Shown in pieces: positions 1,508 to 38,197 of a DNA stretch of 47,011 nt. Position numbers and translations under genes: made by a program. Position 1 is the first letter of the stretch. Each line of letters starts with the position of its first letter. The stretch is taken from the IMG/VR virus record IMGVR_UViG_2534682294_000023; one strand, given 5' to 3'. This DNA comes from a virus. Its lineage: Duplodnaviria; Heunggongvirae; Uroviricota; Caudoviricetes. A model generated the notes under the pieces. That model ran no database searches. It saw nothing but the letters and a program-made list of their open reading frames with translations, and had not been told where the DNA came from.

Positions 1508-1753
1508 TTACATCATAGTACCGTCAGTTCCGGGCTGAACCGGCTCTGGTTGCTCTACGGGTTGAGGCTCATTTTCCGTGCTGTTTTCAGCCGGAGAACG
1601 ACCAACCATTCGGGCCAGCACTTCATCAACATATGCGTCGATTTGTGCCTCAAAATCCTTGCGAACCTGCGCCTTCAGCACGCGGTTCACTTCTTCAGAA
1701 TAAAGTGCCTGTTTGACAAGCTCTTCAGTAACCGTGCCTTTAATCTCTGGCAT
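1508..1753 (-). CDS. Hypothetical protein (81 aa, acidic, Pro/Glu-rich C-terminus)
   Basis: ORF with GGAGAA RBS directly upstream; co-oriented with and downstream of the esterase and a small membrane ORF. Confidence 0.4.
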   Translation of the reverse strand: MPEIKGTVTEELVKQALYSEEVNRVLKAQVRKDFEAQIDAYVDEVLARMVGRSPAENSTENEPQPVEQPEPVQPGTDGTMM

Positions 1754-1788
1754 GAATATTCTCCTTTCCTTTTCTGGTTCACAAAAAA

Positions 1789-1968
1789 TTAAATCTGACC
1801 GGAGTCTTTCGGCTGCGGCATTACAGCACCGCTTTTTATCTTTTCCTCGGCAGCTGCATCAATTTTATTTCGAAAATAATTGCGAATAATTTTATAACCA
1901 CCGCTGACAAGCAACAGACAACAAACCACCGTGCAGAAATACAGCAGGCAGACGTTTATATATGTCAT
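1789..1968 (-). CDS. Small putative membrane protein (59 aa, one hydrophobic helix)
   Basis: Translated by hand: MTYINVCLLYFCTVVCCLLLVSGG...; sits between the esterase and the 81-aa ORF; below the ORF-track size cutoff. Confidence 0.3.
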   Translation of the reverse strand: MTYINVCLLYFCTVVCCLLLVSGGYKIIRNYFRNKIDAAAEEKIKSGAVMPQPKDSGQI

Positions 1969-2025
1969 ATAAGCCTCACTCTTATTAACTGATGTTACAG
2001 CCGGATAAATTCCCGGCCGTCACGA

Positions 2026-4083
2026 TTATGCCGCAGGGGTATTAACCTCAAGGACAACGCTCTCAAAAGACACGCCATAAGTTGCCCCTTTGGTGACATC
2101 TGTCAGTGTCAGCGTATCTTTGGCAGGGGAAAGTGCATCTTTCACCATCTGGAATGCCTGGCCCGGAGTGCCATCCAGCACAGGCGTTACCTGGGCACTT
2201 CCCGCCGTAAACTTCAGGACAAGTGTATGCCACTGGTTATTGTAGGCTCCAAATGATCCCAGTTTCGTATTCCCCCCTGTTTTATGGTGCATCAGATTTA
2301 ACTGGCCGCCTGTTGTCTGGAGATAATACGCCATCAGGAACGGTGTGCCTGTACCACTCATGGTTACACCTTCCGGGACCGTATCGGTGTGGAGGTAAAT
2401 ACCCAGAGCAAACTGGCCTTCTTTTACTTCACCTGACAGACGGAATTTACAGGTCAACTGACCACCATGCTTCAGAAGTTCACCGGCTGCATCAGTTCCA
2501 TGGGTAAGCGTCCAGGTTTTTCCGCTTTGTTTGGATACGGTCAACGCTTTACCTTCGTCCGTCAGCTGGATTGTACCATCTGTAATTTTCCAGCCCTGAG
2601 CCGGGGCTTCTCCTGCTGATGCTTTAAGTGAAAGCAGCGTACGGAGTGACGGGGATGTCGGATGGGGGGACTCACTGCCTCCTGGCTGACTACCTGTCGG
2701 CGCTTCCGGTTTCCCACCCGGCGCGGGCTGAGGCAGGGCTTCACCATCAGGGGCCACACCGGCAATAAATGCAGAGGTCAGACCTGCATATTTAAGAATT
2801 GCTGATGCAAAACGATCTGAGACCAGAAAACGGCGCGCCCAGGAGCTAAAATGGGTTGCCCTGGATGCTGTTGTCCAGTTGCCATCTCCCCGTGATTCCG
2901 CACCATAATACCCGGCAGAAGCGATATCCGGGTCGTGCTCCGGCAGGTTGGTCGCGGTTTTATTACCGAACTCATCGTGCATCAGTGGAACAAAGTGAAT
3001 GTTCTCGGAAGCCCGGTTTTTATATCCGCTATAAATGGTTTCATATGCCGCCGGGTTCTTCTCTTTCCAGTCATAGGTTGTGTCACCACATAACCACGGC
3101 ACACTGTCTGATGAACCACCAATACACTGACCGGAGAAAGCACCAAGATCCGCACGGAATTTTTTCACCATCGCAGTAAACTGGGCACCATGCTGGGCCG
3201 GGGTCGCTTTAAGGTCTCCTTCCCCCTGAATCCATACGACAGATAACAGCACATTCTTTGGATTCGCCTCAAGTGCCGCTTTAGTTCGACTGACAAGATC
3301 CTGATACAGTGGGGTATCCACTCCCCAGCGTAGTGACGCCTCGGCTGCACCACTTGCCGGATCGAATGAGCCAACTGCGCCGGTTGTAAAAGCAGAGCCG
3401 CCACGGGCACAGGGAACCAGTAAAATCCCGGCATCAGCAGGAATCACCGGTAATACTTTTTTCGCAATATGAAGTCCCTGCCCCACACAACCATACTGCC
3501 CTTTTTTCAGGTCTGCTTTTGGATGGTTCAGCAGACTCATATTCTGAACATCATGAAGGCAGTGATCTGCTGGAATGATTTCATTGTATTTGCAGGGAAT
3601 ACCTCCGGGGGTTTGTGTATTCCTGCGTGCCAGCTGCATAATACGTGGATCAGGACGATCATAAGAATCCGGAAGGGGCAACCCTTCACCATAAGATGAA
3701 GCATTGGACTGGCCGGCTATAACAATCACGTAATACCAGGAAGGGGAGCTGGAAGCCGTTTCATTTCCTGCCGGACGGGTATGTGTTTCTGCATTATCCC
3801 AGTCTGACGGTTCAGCAGTACCGGCAACATCAGCACTTAACGGAATGACAGCACCAATACCCGCTCCGGTAATTTCCACGTTCGGATCACCGGATACTGG
3901 CCTTACCCACAGGCAATCCTGTGTATTAAAACTGATGAGACAGTCAGCAAATGTCATTCCTCCTTTCGTTTCAGCAGGAGGAAAGGGAGCCTCAAGAAAT
4001 GCCGCTGTACCACCGGAAACTTTAACGGTAAAGTTTCCGGGCATTGATGATAGTTGAACCCATTTGGACGTCATAATATTCAT
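2026..4083 (-). CDS. NanS-like sialate O-acetylesterase: N-terminal region, SGNH/DUF303-type esterase core (GQSN motif), C-terminal lectin/LamG-like domain
   Basis: 685-aa ORF containing IAGQSNASSYGEG, typical of sialate 9-O-acetylesterase (NanS / prophage NanS-p) domains; C-terminal beta-rich region resembles a carbohydrate-binding domain. Confidence 0.55.
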   Translation of the reverse strand: MNIMTSKWVQLSSMPGNFTVKVSGGTAAFLEAPFPPAETKGGMTFADCLISFNTQDCLWVRPVSGDPNVEITGAGIGAVIPLSADVAGTAEPSDWDNAETHTRPAGNETASSSPSWYYVIVIAGQSNASSYGEGLPLPDSYDRPDPRIMQLARRNTQTPGGIPCKYNEIIPADHCLHDVQNMSLLNHPKADLKKGQYGCVGQGLHIAKKVLPVIPADAGILLVPCARGGSAFTTGAVGSFDPASGAAEASLRWGVDTPLYQDLVSRTKAALEANPKNVLLSVVWIQGEGDLKATPAQHGAQFTAMVKKFRADLGAFSGQCIGGSSDSVPWLCGDTTYDWKEKNPAAYETIYSGYKNRASENIHFVPLMHDEFGNKTATNLPEHDPDIASAGYYGAESRGDGNWTTASRATHFSSWARRFLVSDRFASAILKYAGLTSAFIAGVAPDGEALPQPAPGGKPEAPTGSQPGGSESPHPTSPSLRTLLSLKASAGEAPAQGWKITDGTIQLTDEGKALTVSKQSGKTWTLTHGTDAAGELLKHGGQLTCKFRLSGEVKEGQFALGIYLHTDTVPEGVTMSGTGTPFLMAYYLQTTGGQLNLMHHKTGGNTKLGSFGAYNNQWHTLVLKFTAGSAQVTPVLDGTPGQAFQMVKDALSPAKDTLTLTDVTKGATYGVSFESVVLEVNTPAA

Positions 4084-4173: not shown

Positions 4174-4734
4174 TTATTTTTCCGAAACGCTCGCAGGATA
4201 ATAACGATAAAGGGTTGAAAGGCCGATATCAAAAATAAGTGCCACCTGTCTTCGACTGACACCCCCGGCCAGTAAACGCCCGACCTGCTCGTATTGTTCC
4301 TGCGTGAGACGACGGGGTCTGCCGCCGGTTCGTCCCCTTTCACGGGCAGCTGCAAGACCAGCCCGTGTCCGTTCGACAATTAATTCACGCTCCATTTCTG
4401 CCAGCGCACCCATTATGTGAAAAAAGAAGCGCCCCATGGGGGTTGACGTATCAATGTTGTCAGTAAGACTACGAAAATTTATCCCCTGTTGCTGTAATTC
4501 ATCTGTCAGCGCAACAAGGTGGCGCATACTGCGCCCCAGCCTGTCCAGTTTCCAGACCATCAGTGTGTCACCGGGTTTTAGTTTCTTCAGTGCCCGCTTC
4601 AGTCCCGGCCGCTGTGTCGTTTTACCACTCATTTTATCTTCAAAAATCTGCTCACATCCTGCACATTCCAGCGCATTTCTTTGTAAACCTGTGTTCTGGT
4701 CATTTGTTGATACGCGTATATAGCCAATCAGCAT
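4174..4734 (-). CDS. gin: Gin-family serine DNA invertase
   Basis: 186-aa ORF MLIGYIRVSTNDQNTGLQRNALECAGCEQIFEDK...; matches the Gin/Hin/Cin/Pin N-terminal catalytic serine region and C-terminal HTH. Confidence 0.9.
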   Translation of the reverse strand: MLIGYIRVSTNDQNTGLQRNALECAGCEQIFEDKMSGKTTQRPGLKRALKKLKPGDTLMVWKLDRLGRSMRHLVALTDELQQQGINFRSLTDNIDTSTPMGRFFFHIMGALAEMERELIVERTRAGLAAARERGRTGGRPRRLTQEQYEQVGRLLAGGVSRRQVALIFDIGLSTLYRYYPASVSEK

Positions 4735-4790
4735 GTATTTACCTTCCTTAAAAAGAGGTGGAAAGGCCTTTTAAAACAGATATACGGCAT

Positions 4791-4816
4791 CCCTGAAACC
4801 TCGGTTTACGGGATAC
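4791..4816. repeat. gix-like recombination site (gin-proximal)
   Basis: ccctGAAACCTCGGTTTACgggatac closely resembles my recollection of the Mu gix core (AAACCTCGGTTTAC); lies 57 bp from the gin start. Confidence 0.5.
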
Positions 4817-5159
4817 TGTAAACAGGGCCGCGAATGCCCTGCCATCGAACGGAGCGGCTGTTGCAGCGAATAAACTCGCCACTCCAAGAAATATTAATGG
4901 TGTCCCATTTGACGGAACGCAGGATATAAATATTACATCGGGGATGACGCAGTCTGTGGCTGACTCACGTTATGTTCAAAGCATTCGAAGAGGTTCAAGG
5001 TCAACGATTGGAATGCAATATAATATTTTTGAGGTTCCTGACGGATGCGTACTTACAGGGCTTGATGTCGCTGGTGATGGTAATGCAACGGTAACCGCAT
5101 ATTATCGACCTGTTCAGTTTCTGATAGATGGTTCGTGGAAAACAGCTTCCAGCGCATAA
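4797..5159 (+). CDS. Alternative tail-fibre C-terminal coding segment (S'v-like); start-less in the current orientation
   Basis: Open frame right after the gix-like site translates to [53 protein letters not shown]..., parallel to residues about 177-303 of the S ORF and then diverging; both end in a YYRPVQ-containing tail. Confidence 0.6.
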   Translation, partial: NLGLRDTVNRAANALPSNGAAVAANKLATPRNINGVPFDGTQDINITSGMTQSVADSRYVQSIRRGSRSTIGMQYNIFEVPDGCVLTGLDVAGDGNATVTAYYRPVQFLIDGSWKTASSA

Positions 5160-5238
5160 AAGTGCAGTAGTTCAAAAAACAGATTATCTGAATAAATATA
5201 TGATGATTTTGTCTTTTCAACAAAAACAAGGTGAAATA

Positions 5239-5760
5239 ATGGAGCTTATTAACGTAAAACGATATTACCCGGAACACAAACCCTATGGTGAGGATGTTCA
5301 GTATTTCCAGAGTGAGGACGGAAGGGATTTTTATGAATCTATCCCGCTTTTCACAAAGAAATACAAACTCTGTATTTCGCCTGTAACGGGTATTATCTGC
5401 TCTGTTGCTGAAGATGTCTCTGCTTTATATCCGGCAGGTTTTACTGTTGTTGAAGTGGACGAACTGCCGGAAGGTGTGAATATTGACGGTAACTGGCAGT
5501 TTTCTGATGGCCTGATATCAAAGGTGCCGGTAAACTGGAAGACGGTTGCTGAAAAGCGTCGCTCATCGCTGCTCCAGGAAGCCAACGAAACCGTGGATGA
5601 CTGGAAAACAGAATTAAAACTGGACATGATTAGCGATGAAAATAAATTACAGCTGACGCGCTGGATGGCGTATATCCGACAGCTTAAAGAAATGCACTTT
5701 AATGATATTGCCAGTGAGGGGCATTACCAGGCGATTCCCTGGCCGGAAAAACCGGAATAA
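5239..5760 (+). CDS. Tail fibre assembly protein (Mu U/U'-like chaperone)
   Basis: ATG at 5239 preceded by AAGGTGA; product has the Tfa-family C-terminal region (...KLQLTRWMAYIRQL...PWPEKPE); follows the S'v segment on the same strand. Confidence 0.75.
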   Translation: MELINVKRYYPEHKPYGEDVQYFQSEDGRDFYESIPLFTKKYKLCISPVTGIICSVAEDVSALYPAGFTVVEVDELPEGVNIDGNWQFSDGLISKVPVNWKTVAEKRRSSLLQEANETVDDWKTELKLDMISDENKLQLTRWMAYIRQLKEMHFNDIASEGHYQAIPWPEKPE

Positions 5761-5794
5761 TTCAGAGGGTGCATTCAGCACCCTTTTCTGTGGT

Positions 5795-6706
5795 TTACAC
5801 TGAACTTACCGTTCTCCAGGCATTATTAATATAAATCTGAACCGGGCGATAATAGACCCCACCGATATTGTCCGCAGACCGGGAGCCGGTTTCCTGCACG
5901 TTAATACCGGAAAGCATACAACCGGAAGGTGCGCTGTAATTCCATGATATTTCATTGCCTCCGGGTGAATGATAGCTCTGTGCTCCAAGCTGAACATTCT
6001 GTACATACCGGCCATCTGCGGTTGACTGCGTCATTCCTGACGTGATGTTGATATCCTGCGTTCCGTCAAAAGGAACGCCATTAATATTTTTTGGGGTGGC
6101 GAGTCTGTTTGCTGCCACGGCGGTTCCACCCGATGGCAGGGCATCAGCAGCCTTATTTACCGTTTCCCGTAAACCGACGTTATCGATAAAAGCGCCTTTA
6201 TCCGGAATGTCTGCGCCATTCTGGTCCCTGCGCAGGTAACGGTTATCACCTTCGCTCTTGCTGTAAACATCCAGATTATTACGGGCGGTTCCCTTATTCT
6301 CCAGGTCGGCGAGATTCTGATCCTTCGCCAGGGCATTAACGTCACCGGGACCAAGACTGTTTTTTGTGGCAAGCGTCCCCAGACCAAGATAACCACGGGC
6401 CAGACGCTGGGCCTCCGCACCGGCATCAGCAATTTCTTTCAGGTTATTTTTCCGGGAAAAAGCATTCGCAGCGATAATGGCTTTAATAGACAGCGTAAGC
6501 TGGTTTAACTGCGCCTTATCCGGCTGAATACTGGCTTCAGCCAGAATATTCAGCAGTTCGGCCTGGAGAATATTCAGCCAGTCCTGACCAATCCAGCTGA
6601 TACCTTTTTGTCCGTCACCTTCGGTAAACCAGGTGGTGGTATTACTCTGCGCCGGTGCCAGCGCAGGCATATTCGCCACGCCGGAATTATTATCAACATG
6701 AAACAT
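5795..6706 (-). CDS. Tail fibre protein (Mu S-like), constant N-terminus joined to the currently expressed variable C-terminus
   Basis: 303-aa ORF; N-terminal part lies outside and C-terminal part inside the gix-bounded segment. Confidence 0.8.
6163..6183. repeat. gix-like recombination site (inside tail-fibre gene S), inverted relative to the site at 4791-4816
   Basis: tcccgtaaaccga shares 13 bp with the reverse complement of the site at 4794-4813; sits exactly where the two alternative tail-fibre C-terminal coding segments start to align (S residue about 177). Confidence 0.45.
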
Positions 6707-7266
6707 TAAATAGTCTCCTCTTCATGGCTGTTTGCATACACGTAAATAAACGTCTGCCATGCAGGCTTATAACGGTTCAGAATACATTCCAGCGCACCGC
6801 CTTCATAAATACGCAGCGGCGTGAGAATATCATCCAGCACATTCATATTCCGGTAGCCGGTTTCACTGTTAATCGTGACAATACTGACCCACTGTGAATC
6901 CGGTGATGGCTGAATATCTATTTCATAACCAAACTCTGCCGCAAACCGGATATAAAATTCACGGTTAAGAGAGGGTTTCATCCGGTATTTATTCCCGGCA
7001 TAACGCTGACGCTCCTGAATGGTTGCGCCGGTCATATCACATTCCGGTAACCCCAGATAACGCTCCCAGTCTTCCAGCAGCAGACGGGATGAATCAGGAA
7101 AACGTTCTGCCAGCATCTGGTTACCGGTCCAGGAAACACGCTCCGTGGAATGACTGAGGCCCAGGCACAAAGCCGCAAGAACGGATGACGGCCGCTTATC
7201 CCATGCCAGCCCGTCAGGCAGCAACTGCAACAGGGCACGCTGATGCGGGGTCAGGGTTACAGCCAT
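6706..7266 (-). CDS. Mu gp48-like tail/baseplate protein
   Basis: Position between baseplate J-like gene and tail fibre; size and synteny with Mu. Confidence 0.6.
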
Positions 7267-20073: not shown

Positions 20074-20249
20074 TCCGGCAGCATAAGCCGGGAATTTTCA
20101 GGGCGGGTTTTGCGGGATTTCAGGAAGTGCTTCCAGGGGAAAAATACAAAGGCGCTTCACGCAGATTTTAAAGCCCGTTAAATACAGGTTAGAAAATCAC
20201 GACACGCGCCTGAAGGGGGTAAGGTAATGCATTTGCATACCTTAAACAA

Positions 20250-27975: not shown

Positions 27976-28046
27976 TGTTACGCTGTCTCATGATGTTCTC
28001 TGAGTCAGCGTAACGGTGAAGGAAAGGCGGCAGGCTTTGCGGAATA

Positions 28047-28472
28047 TCAGAAAAGTGGCGGTTGTGTTCTTGCCAGATGCAGACGGCGCTGTTCACGTAT
28101 GACGGTATAAATCTGGGTTTCTGACATCCGGTAATGGCGGCGAAGGGATTCAATTTTCTCGCCCCGGTCCCAGCGCGAAAATATCTCATTGTTTCGCAGC
28201 TCGGCAAAGAGAGATTCCCCGACCGGCAGGTAATAACCCCGTCCGCCCATATAGGCTGCCTGAGCCGCAGCCACCTTGCGTGCCAGTTTGCCGGCCAGTA
28301 CCGGCTCAATCCCCTGACGCTGAAGTTCTGCGCCGGTGACTTCAACCAGTTCTGACAGGGTCCGCGGCCAGTTCTTTTTGAGAACATCATCAGGGATGTC
28401 ATCAAGGCGGTCGATAAGGGCGTGCAGTTGCTCACTGTCACCACCAAACATGCTCATCTGAGTTTCTGCCAT
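28047..28472 (-). CDS. Mor/C-family transcriptional activator of late genes
   Basis: 141-aa ORF with GGAGG RBS; C-terminal HTH region typical of Mor/C; lies immediately upstream of the lysis and morphogenesis genes. Confidence 0.75.
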   Translation of the reverse strand: MAETQMSMFGGDSEQLHALIDRLDDIPDDVLKKNWPRTLSELVEVTGAELQRQGIEPVLAGKLARKVAAAQAAYMGGRGYYLPVGESLFAELRNNEIFSRWDRGEKIESLRRHYRMSETQIYTVIREQRRLHLARTQPPLF

Positions 28473-38107: not shown

Positions 38108-38197
38108 CGATACTCGAACAATAATCCGAGATCAAGCTTTTTGTTCGGTTTATTGTTTGGTTTTTCTTTTGTGCGTTTTTGTAGGAAAACCATTTTT

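Follow-up and report, generated by a model that had tools for sequence, protein, structure and literature searches.

Two alternative fibre ends and one tail fibre assembly gene in the Gin-invertible segment of an Sp18-family Mu-like prophage

Tail-fibre chaperones (Tfa) are commonly regarded as partners dedicated to one fibre, with their gene placed directly behind the fibre gene. In the C segment of P1, the P region of e14, and the Min system of p15B, where a serine invertase lies beside a segment that swaps the C-terminal parts of the fibre, a tfa gene of its own is generally described after either fibre end, and p15B has multiple crossover sites. Unlike these segments, the one described here, found in a 47,011-nt stretch of phage DNA (the window in the following), has two crossover sites only and a single tfa gene, which lies in tandem with the silent fibre end and is convergent to the end now in use. 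The locus raises the question of how two different fibre tips are assembled with one chaperone gene, and in particular whether the tip facing this gene is chaperoned by its product, by that of another gene, or not at all.

The invertible segment and its genes

The window holds a full-length Mu-like prophage, one end of which lies just beyond position 1, where mom ends, and the other at about 39.0 kb; it is inserted in a MATE-family gene, and its main features are listed in Table 1. The invertible segment is 98.9–99.9% identical to that of Mu-like prophages in STEC, O157 included, and on the strength of these matches the element is assigned to the Sp18 family of Mu-like prophages of E. coli.

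Table 1. Features of the invertible segment and of the prophage that carries it (window coordinates).
Feature	Position	Strand	Remarks
gin-like serine invertase	4174..4734	-	186 aa; Pfam Resolvase (E = 1.4e-51) plus HTH_7
gin-proximal gix-like site	4789..4814	.	ATCCCTGAAACC-TC-GGTTTACGGGAT; core TC 4801-4802
S'v, silent alternative C-terminal segment	4803..5159	+	118 codons plus stop; open frame
AT-rich spacer, S'v stop to tfa start	5160..5238	+	79 nt; own Shine-Dalgarno AAGGTG
tfa, sole tail-fibre assembly protein gene	5239..5760	+	173 aa; Pfam Caudo_TAP (PF02413), E = 1.9e-18
GC hairpin, terminator-like	5764..5786	.	9 pairs then TCTGTGGTTT; T-run in tfa direction
Sv, variable C-terminal segment of S, current fusion	5795..6175	-	126 codons plus stop
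Sc-proximal gix-like site	6164..6189	.	TTCCCGTAAACC-GA-CGTTATCGATAA; core GA 6176-6177
Sc, constant N-terminal part of tail fibre S	6176..6706	-	outside invertible segment
Tail fibre S as it stands (Sc + Sv)	6706->5795	-	303 aa
gp48-like baseplate wedge protein	6706..7266	-	directly upstream of S; Pfam Phage_Mu_Gp48, E = 2e-22; 49% identity to Mu gp48
gp47-like gene	8342->7257	-	minus-strand order gp47-like, gp48-like, S, gin-like
B	35607->34675		
Transposase A	37769->35679		
Repressor	38141-38839		

The invertible segment, 1,373 bp between the cores of its crossover sites, adjoins a gin homologue, the product of which shares 75% identity with Mu Gin across 181 aa and has a catalytic-type N-terminus, MLIGYIRVST. 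In Gin/Hin-type systems, a Fis-dependent recombinational enhancer (sis) lies in the 5' part of the invertase gene; here the gene shows 80% identity to Mu gin over its first 120 nt as against 71% overall, an indirect hint at a putative enhancer. The two 26-bp crossover sites are inverted and located at the outer ends of an inverted repeat (arms 4797–4978 and 6000–6181, 182 nt, 78% complementary), which is long because its arms are the homologous coding starts of both variable segments. Both sites have the core TC in the same sense, as in Mu gix (TTATCCAAAACC-TC-GGTTTACAGGAA), with which the gin-proximal site agrees at 19 and the Sc-proximal site at 22 of the 26 positions; the gix-like nature ascribed to them in the initial annotation is thereby borne out. 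A scan for gix gave 13 loose matches against 4.3 expected, with no mismatches in the two known sites only, and with this loose pattern no third gix-like site was found in the segment or elsewhere in the phage. A third crossover site that would re-orient tfa alone was also considered and rejected, as there is neither such a site nor such an architecture among the surveyed loci. The system is thus confirmed as a Gin/gix invertible tail-fibre segment of the Mu G-segment type.

The constant part Sc shows 47% identity with residues 1–191 of Mu S and matches PDB 5yvq_A (E = 5.9e-49). When the segment was flipped in silico at the cores, Sc joined 4803–5159 in frame to give S', a protein of 295 aa, and this fusion is annotated as an intact tail protein CDS in genomes that carry the flipped segment. 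S'v has its homologue in the last 126 residues of S; its identity with Sv is 56% overall and 40% in the tip. Two alternative fibre ends on opposite strands, bracketed by inverted gix-like sites about 1.4 kb apart, are therefore confirmed, as is the observation, made from the sequence, that S in its present orientation is complete yet has no co-oriented chaperone gene downstream.

The product of tfa scored 67.3 bits with the Caudo_TAP profile (cut-off, 22.1), matched Mu U in PDB 5yvq_B (E = 2.3e-15), and showed 28–31% identity to Mu U and U'. It is a member of the tail fibre assembly protein family, and a chaperone action on the neighbouring fibre is predicted from the association of such genes with related tips in other loci. 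The description of tfa as the single gene of its kind, co-oriented with the silent S'v, needed only one adjustment, namely, a start at ATG 5239 and not at 5128. In the Sv-ON state, in which Sc is fused to Sv, tfa is antisense to the late operon. A second Tfa-like ORF, the discovery of which would have overturned this description, was not found: when every ORF of 40 aa or more from the 47-kb window was compared with the Tfa profile, no other match appeared even at E = 10. Moreover, only 34 nt, including the GC hairpin, separate the stop codon of Sv from that of tfa, leaving no room for a second chaperone gene between the convergent stops. A hidden chaperone ORF downstream of Sv was likewise rejected, the ORFs antisense to tfa not being conserved between alleles. 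The hairpin has a folding energy of -15.3 kcal/mol in one direction and of -14.7 kcal/mol in the other, and an equivalent GC hairpin lies between the convergent tfa and Sv stops in every allele. The spacer from S'v to tfa measures 79, 108, or 51 nt depending on the allele type, whereas in Mu just 2 nt separate S from U.

The segment resembles the Mu G segment (AF083977) in its place after gp47 and gp48 and before gin and then com-mom, in the location of the crossover within the fibre gene (...NVGL/RETVN versus ...NLGL/QETVN, the slash marking the crossover), and in its Gin, gix, Sc, and tip ends, the last of which are about 40% identical. It differs from the Mu segment in length (1.37 kb versus 3.06 kb), in the size of the variable parts (118–126 aa versus about 320–335 aa), in having one tfa gene instead of two, set off by a spacer of 51–108 nt, and in an Sv that abuts a hairpin and a convergent tfa. 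A tfa gene directly after each fibre end, as in canonical Mu- and P1-type cassettes, is not present in the window.

Inversion in natural genomes and conservation of the single-tfa layout

The 2.7-kb region in the orientation of the window was found end to end in 182 complete E. coli genomes, and its exact in-silico flip, also end to end, in 25 others, three of them at 99.9% over 2,701 nt; the naturally flipped genomes are joined exactly at the predicted cores. Both orientations of a segment that had been proposed to invert from a single state thus exist as natural genomes. Indeed, AR-0428 (unflipped) and FORC_044 (flipped) have an identical phage–host insertion junction over 1,602 nt, which shows that the segment has flipped in place within one prophage lineage. 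The prophages sampled, seven Sv-ON and seven flipped, occupy 14 different host loci and are accordingly insertions that a transposing phage made independently. The Sv-ON state predominates, both among the complete genomes, where the ratio of 182:25 contains clonal replicates, and among the IMG/VR loci (14 versus 6, leaving out one truncated remnant and the locked loci described below). A biased equilibrium, instead of the orientation in which the phage infected, could underlie the ratio of 182:25.

The conservation of the layout was surveyed among IMG/VR loci anchored on the constant part of S, in which Sc, the variable ends, Tfa, and Gin were mapped. All 20 complete segments with an Sc at least 62% identical to that of the window contain exactly one tfa gene, always in the layout Sc-(Sv> <tfa <S'v)-gin or its flip, and the same layout with a single tfa occurs in 207 complete E. 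coli genomes. The alleles of this clade have diverged, with Tfa identities of 98–100%, 64%, and 61–62%, three types of S'v, two families of Sv, and mosaics as well. The complete Mu-type segments (Sc about 48% identical) have U and U' in every case, so that the statement of the initial annotation that Mu G segments carry a chaperone gene for each variant holds for Mu and its relatives. A search of genome contigs by Sc alignment yielded one distant locus only (L004). The single-Tfa layout is thus the norm of the Sp18-type clade and not a defect or a local deletion; the deletion suggested for this copy is not supported in view of the 20 clade segments, their diverged alleles, and the 207 genomes. 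A second tfa may have been lost once, long ago, in the common ancestor of the clade. Remnants were also encountered, namely, a truncated locus (L024) and two 99.9% matches next to dusA that are rearranged or truncated (H3 and H33), and these were left out as evidence of function.

Selection on the fibre ends was estimated from the allelic divergence. The Sv tip alleles gave dN/dS values of 0.05–0.15 at pS of up to about 0.7, a combination of deep synonymous divergence and low dN/dS which indicates that selection acts on the tips at the protein level; within each S'v type, there is almost no variation. Sv is clearly under strong purifying selection. These data bear on the view that Sv-ON is a non-productive off state, or that the locus is a decayed, non-functional Mu-type G segment from which one chaperone gene was deleted. 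Although such a view could appeal to the U and U' of canonical Mu and to the copies that are clearly remnants, it would have to account for selection on Sv across deep allelic divergence, for a majority of Sv-ON in independent insertions, for a layout universal in the clade, and for the full-length prophage in the window, and Sp18 itself has been reported as predicted intact, with its DNA efficiently packaged (PMC2669165). The selection on Sv together with the Sv-ON majority renders an off state or a decayed segment very unlikely. The segment is a working G-type host-range switch of an intact Sp18-family prophage.

The element as such is already on record: in Sp18 of O157:H7 Sakai, the host-specificity region (invertible) was scored "atypical" by Asadulghani et al. 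2009 (PMC2669165). A literature search found no published account of the single-chaperone layout, its conservation, or its consequences. Papers on SfMu, on Yersinia Mu-like phages, and on the cryo-EM structure of Mu give the S/U/U'/S' layout only, the paper on PDB 9cuy (a short tail fibre) contains nothing on chaperones, and transcriptome papers mentioning Sp18 have no gene-level data for tfa. A long-read-validated Mu-like inversion (CP066032; PMC9881135) proved to be a classic Mu-type segment with two Tfa genes.

Expression and retention of tfa

In the Sv-ON state, transcription of tfa would have to proceed convergently against the late operon, which would be unusual, and promoters were sought accordingly. 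In a consensus scan, no sigma-70-like site upstream of tfa in the window, the spacer included, reached the threshold. The annotated late promoters of Mu have a common CATAAC-type box, and the late-promoter box of the window phage, CTGAWATYCCGCAAARCCYGCC, located upstream of the lys and I homologues, differs from it; neither box is present in the invertible segment, where a relaxed pattern was not above chance. The box of the window phage was derived from two sites and the search recovered those two only; the test has low power because even the equivalents of PP and Pmom went undetected. In each of the alleles, a weight-matrix scan revealed candidates that precede tfa by 115–215 nt and fall within the 3' end of S'v. 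They are moderately enriched (99.98th–99.997th percentile of the phage-wide distribution) and constitute weak evidence for a promoter because the region is AT-rich.

The retention of tfa can be followed in derivatives that are locked in one orientation. In seven IMG/VR loci (L006-L009, L025, L026, and L032), S'v and gin were lost via one shared deletion, and at least two complete genomes, E. coli CI5 and S1-CAM-01-A, are locked as judged by match length. The locked loci retain S with its Sv end, the hairpin, an intact convergent tfa, and the 108-nt spacer, which now abuts an esterase gene. One of them, L032, located on a 36.5-kb contig, has the only strong sigma-70 candidate of the scans, ATGATA-17-TATAAT, at the very top of the phage-wide distribution. 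Four tfa alleles occur among the locked loci, with pairwise dN/dS of 0.10–0.23. An intact tfa in these loci is as expected if S with the Sv end needs Tfa and tfa has its own promoter. The diversity of tfa among the locked loci is not proof of this, as the alleles may be recombination imports and not have been maintained in place.

Possible dependence of the two tips on Tfa

The last 70 or so residues of both Sv and S'v show about 40% identity to the C-terminal end of Mu S (for the S'v tip, Mu S 437–504), and PDB 5yvq is a joint structure of Mu S and U. A further scan of IMG/VR showed that, in all 80 of the other phage loci whose tips share 56–63% identity with Sv, a Tfa gene follows immediately on the same strand. 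Two Mu-type loci (L052 and L066), with tips 61% identical to Sv, continue into a U-like Tfa. The same is seen in non-invertible Mu-like loci. L071 and L073 resemble the window in an Sv-like tip and in a Tfa of the same subfamily (56–58% identical to that of the window; 58% in L073). Unlike in the window, their tfa lies directly after the fibre gene on the same strand with a 10-nt spacer; the locus sequence of L073 contains no gin or second tip. By this comparative evidence, the Sv type of tip would be a client of Tfa elsewhere. Thus, of the proposal in the initial annotation that one variant folds without a dedicated chaperone, the part concerning the lack of a co-oriented tfa after S stands, but a chaperone-free Sv is made doubtful by the 80 loci, L073, and the homology to Mu S.

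Tfa types also appear to be promiscuous across tips, as suggested by two comparisons. In the Mu clade, U-type Tfas 91–100% identical accompany tips that are just 54% identical to each other, and two loci of the Sp18-type clade (L027 and L002) have the same S'v type together with Tfa alleles only 64% identical. Such promiscuity could favour a supply of Tfa in trans, whereby Sv would need Tfa but obtain it from co-resident prophages, which are numerous in STEC, its own tfa being expressed in the S'v-ON state only. The hosts have many prophages bearing tail-fibre genes, and several insertion sites lie inside other prophages. This supply would, however, depend on a second prophage being induced at the same time and would not work in hosts poor in prophages, and it explains neither the retention of tfa and its spacer in the locked derivatives nor why every allele keeps exactly this layout; we consider it improbable.

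Possible, though doubtful, is that Sv folds and trimerises without any Tfa and that Tfa is dedicated to S'v, a flip toggling both the tip and the presence of Tfa. The position of tfa, in tandem with S'v only and antisense to the late operon in Sv-ON, is what this explanation would lead one to expect, as is the outcome of the consensus and late-box scans, in which a promoter for independent expression of tfa was not found; Sv works somehow, given that Sv-ON is the commoner state and that Sv is under purifying selection. The explanation is at odds, however, with the Tfa that follows this tip family in the 80 other loci and in the two Mu-type loci, with the homology of the tip to the end of Mu S, and with the locked derivatives, in which an intact tfa and spacer would be unexpected if Tfa acted on S'v only. 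On these comparisons, a Tfa that serves both tips is probably more likely than a chaperone-free Sv. In work by North and Davidson, the Tfa of Mu is reported to remain on the tip of the fibre and to bind to the cell surface. It seems rather unlikely that Sv assembles here without Tfa and that the flip switches, besides the receptor-binding tip, the production of Tfa and its attachment at the end of the fibre.

The reading that we prefer, with a probability of about one half, is that one promiscuous Tfa, transcribed whatever the orientation, serves both tips. Gin recombines the inverted gix sites and flips the 1,373 bp, so that Sc is fused to Sv, as at present, or to S'v, according to the orientation. 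The single Tfa would act as a promiscuous chaperone of both tips, its action on Sv being presumed from the related loci. With its own spacer and ribosome-binding site, a putative promoter upstream, and the hairpin as a terminator downstream, tfa would form an expression unit of its own, from which Tfa could be made in either orientation, presumably even while tfa is antisense to the late operon.

With the element already on record, the gain is mechanistic and does not lie in a new class of system. A widespread natural switch, carried by over 200 complete E. coli genomes, O157 and further STEC among them, has one chaperone gene for two tips 40% identical, and the commoner, well-conserved tip is the one convergent to that gene. 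If Sv were Tfa-free, the segment would be a two-component host-range switch with a natural Tfa-independent fibre of the Mu S type, and would define what makes a Mu-type tip chaperone-independent. If, on the other hand, a single Tfa is shared by both tips, the promiscuity of Tfa would be used in nature, tfa could be an autonomous transcription unit, and a cassette of 1.4 kb would be enough for a two-state receptor switch, which would be useful for host-range engineering.

Prophage boundaries and accessory genes

The mom stop coincides exactly with the first position of the window, and a comparison with FRIK804 coordinates places the prophage's right end about 90 bp beyond it. Mu has nothing but a promoter separating gin from com/mom; at this place the window carries a moron-like gene block that encodes a protein with a sialate O-acetylesterase domain and two small proteins; RefSeq names the products of small block genes in relatives DUF1378 and DUF826 proteins. 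Similar blocks, with NanS-p esterases, occur in Stx prophages. The opposite, repressor end of the prophage (region 38141–47011 with its flank) is located near 39.0 kb, and the MATE-family (dinF-like) gene there is interrupted by the prophage. Farther into this flank, the YfbR-like and DUF2303 genes resemble the yfdR/yfdQ prophage genes beside dusA.

The lys homologue and the I homologue are each preceded by one copy of a 22-nt box, CTGAWATYCCGCAAARCCYGCC, and a −10-like element, TTAYGCT, comes about 20 nt after each copy. This box, which differs from the CATAAC-type late box of Mu, is probably the binding site of the C-type late activator of the window phage. No copy of it was found at the PP and mom positions.

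Features of the window outside the invertible segment
Feature	Position (nt)	Strand	Remark
Mom-like gene	738→1	−	79% identity to Mu Mom
Com-like gene	937→692	−	
Moron-like block	1508–4083	−	between gin and com/mom
Small gene	1753→1508	−	matched by position and length to a RefSeq-annotated small gene of relatives
Small gene	1968→1789	−	matched by position and length to a RefSeq-annotated small gene of relatives
685-aa protein	4083→2026	−	sialate O-acetylesterase (SASA) domain and DUF6645
22-nt box copies	28029–28050 and 20102–20123	−	upstream of lys and I homologues
MATE-family (dinF-like) gene	39165–40130		interrupted
Fur-family (zur-like) gene	41072→40497	−	next after MATE-family gene
DUF2713 gene			after Fur-family gene
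YfbR-like and DUF2303 genes	45.3–46.7 kb		

Remnants and insertions into other prophages

The closest matches to the invertible segment (99.9%), L158 (NZ_CP027591.1) and L003 (NZ_CP024056.1), are not complete prophages; they represent a rearranged remnant adjoining dusA/pspG in the order gp46 fragment–gp47–gp48–S–G–gin–truncated esterase, with a com–mom piece elsewhere in L158. Among the strains carrying this remnant, the segment is found in both orientations. The Stx-converting phage records LC727881.1 and LC727895.1 each contain an inserted Mu-like phage of the window's family, showing 94.6% identity over the segment in the window orientation; thus, Mu-like phages transpose into other prophages. 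Several genome-borne Mu-like prophages of this family are likewise inserted in other prophages.

Locked derivatives and diversity of the fibre ends

At the segment itself, a fragment of S'v, the silent alternative fibre end, appears in RefSeq under the name 'tail fiber protein' (WP_010917875.1; 67 aa; 4944–5159, +), starting at an internal ATG, together with small 'hypothetical proteins' spanning the gix/IR arms (e.g. 4748–4882, −). These annotations result from the invertible layout and do not represent separate genes.

From the locked derivatives, namely the loci L032 (7001–8760), L006–L009, L025 and L026 and, judged by match length, the E. coli genomes CI5 (H63) and S1-CAM-01-A (H67), S'v and gin have been removed by one deletion common to all. 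The tfa gene remains intact with its spacer, convergent with S(Sv), and the esterase gene directly adjoins this retained S(Sv)/tfa unit. In L032, tfa is preceded at a distance of 123 nt by a strong candidate sigma-70-like site (ATGATA-17-TATAAT).

Comparison of alleles across L002–L042 revealed that the Tfa-distal tips of Sv, the end expressed in the window, fall into two families whose synonymous divergence is deep (pS as high as 0.7), whereas the Tfa-linked S'v is nearly invariant inside each type (pS at most 0.04). This unequal diversity suggests that the two cassette ends differ in age or in recombination dynamics.
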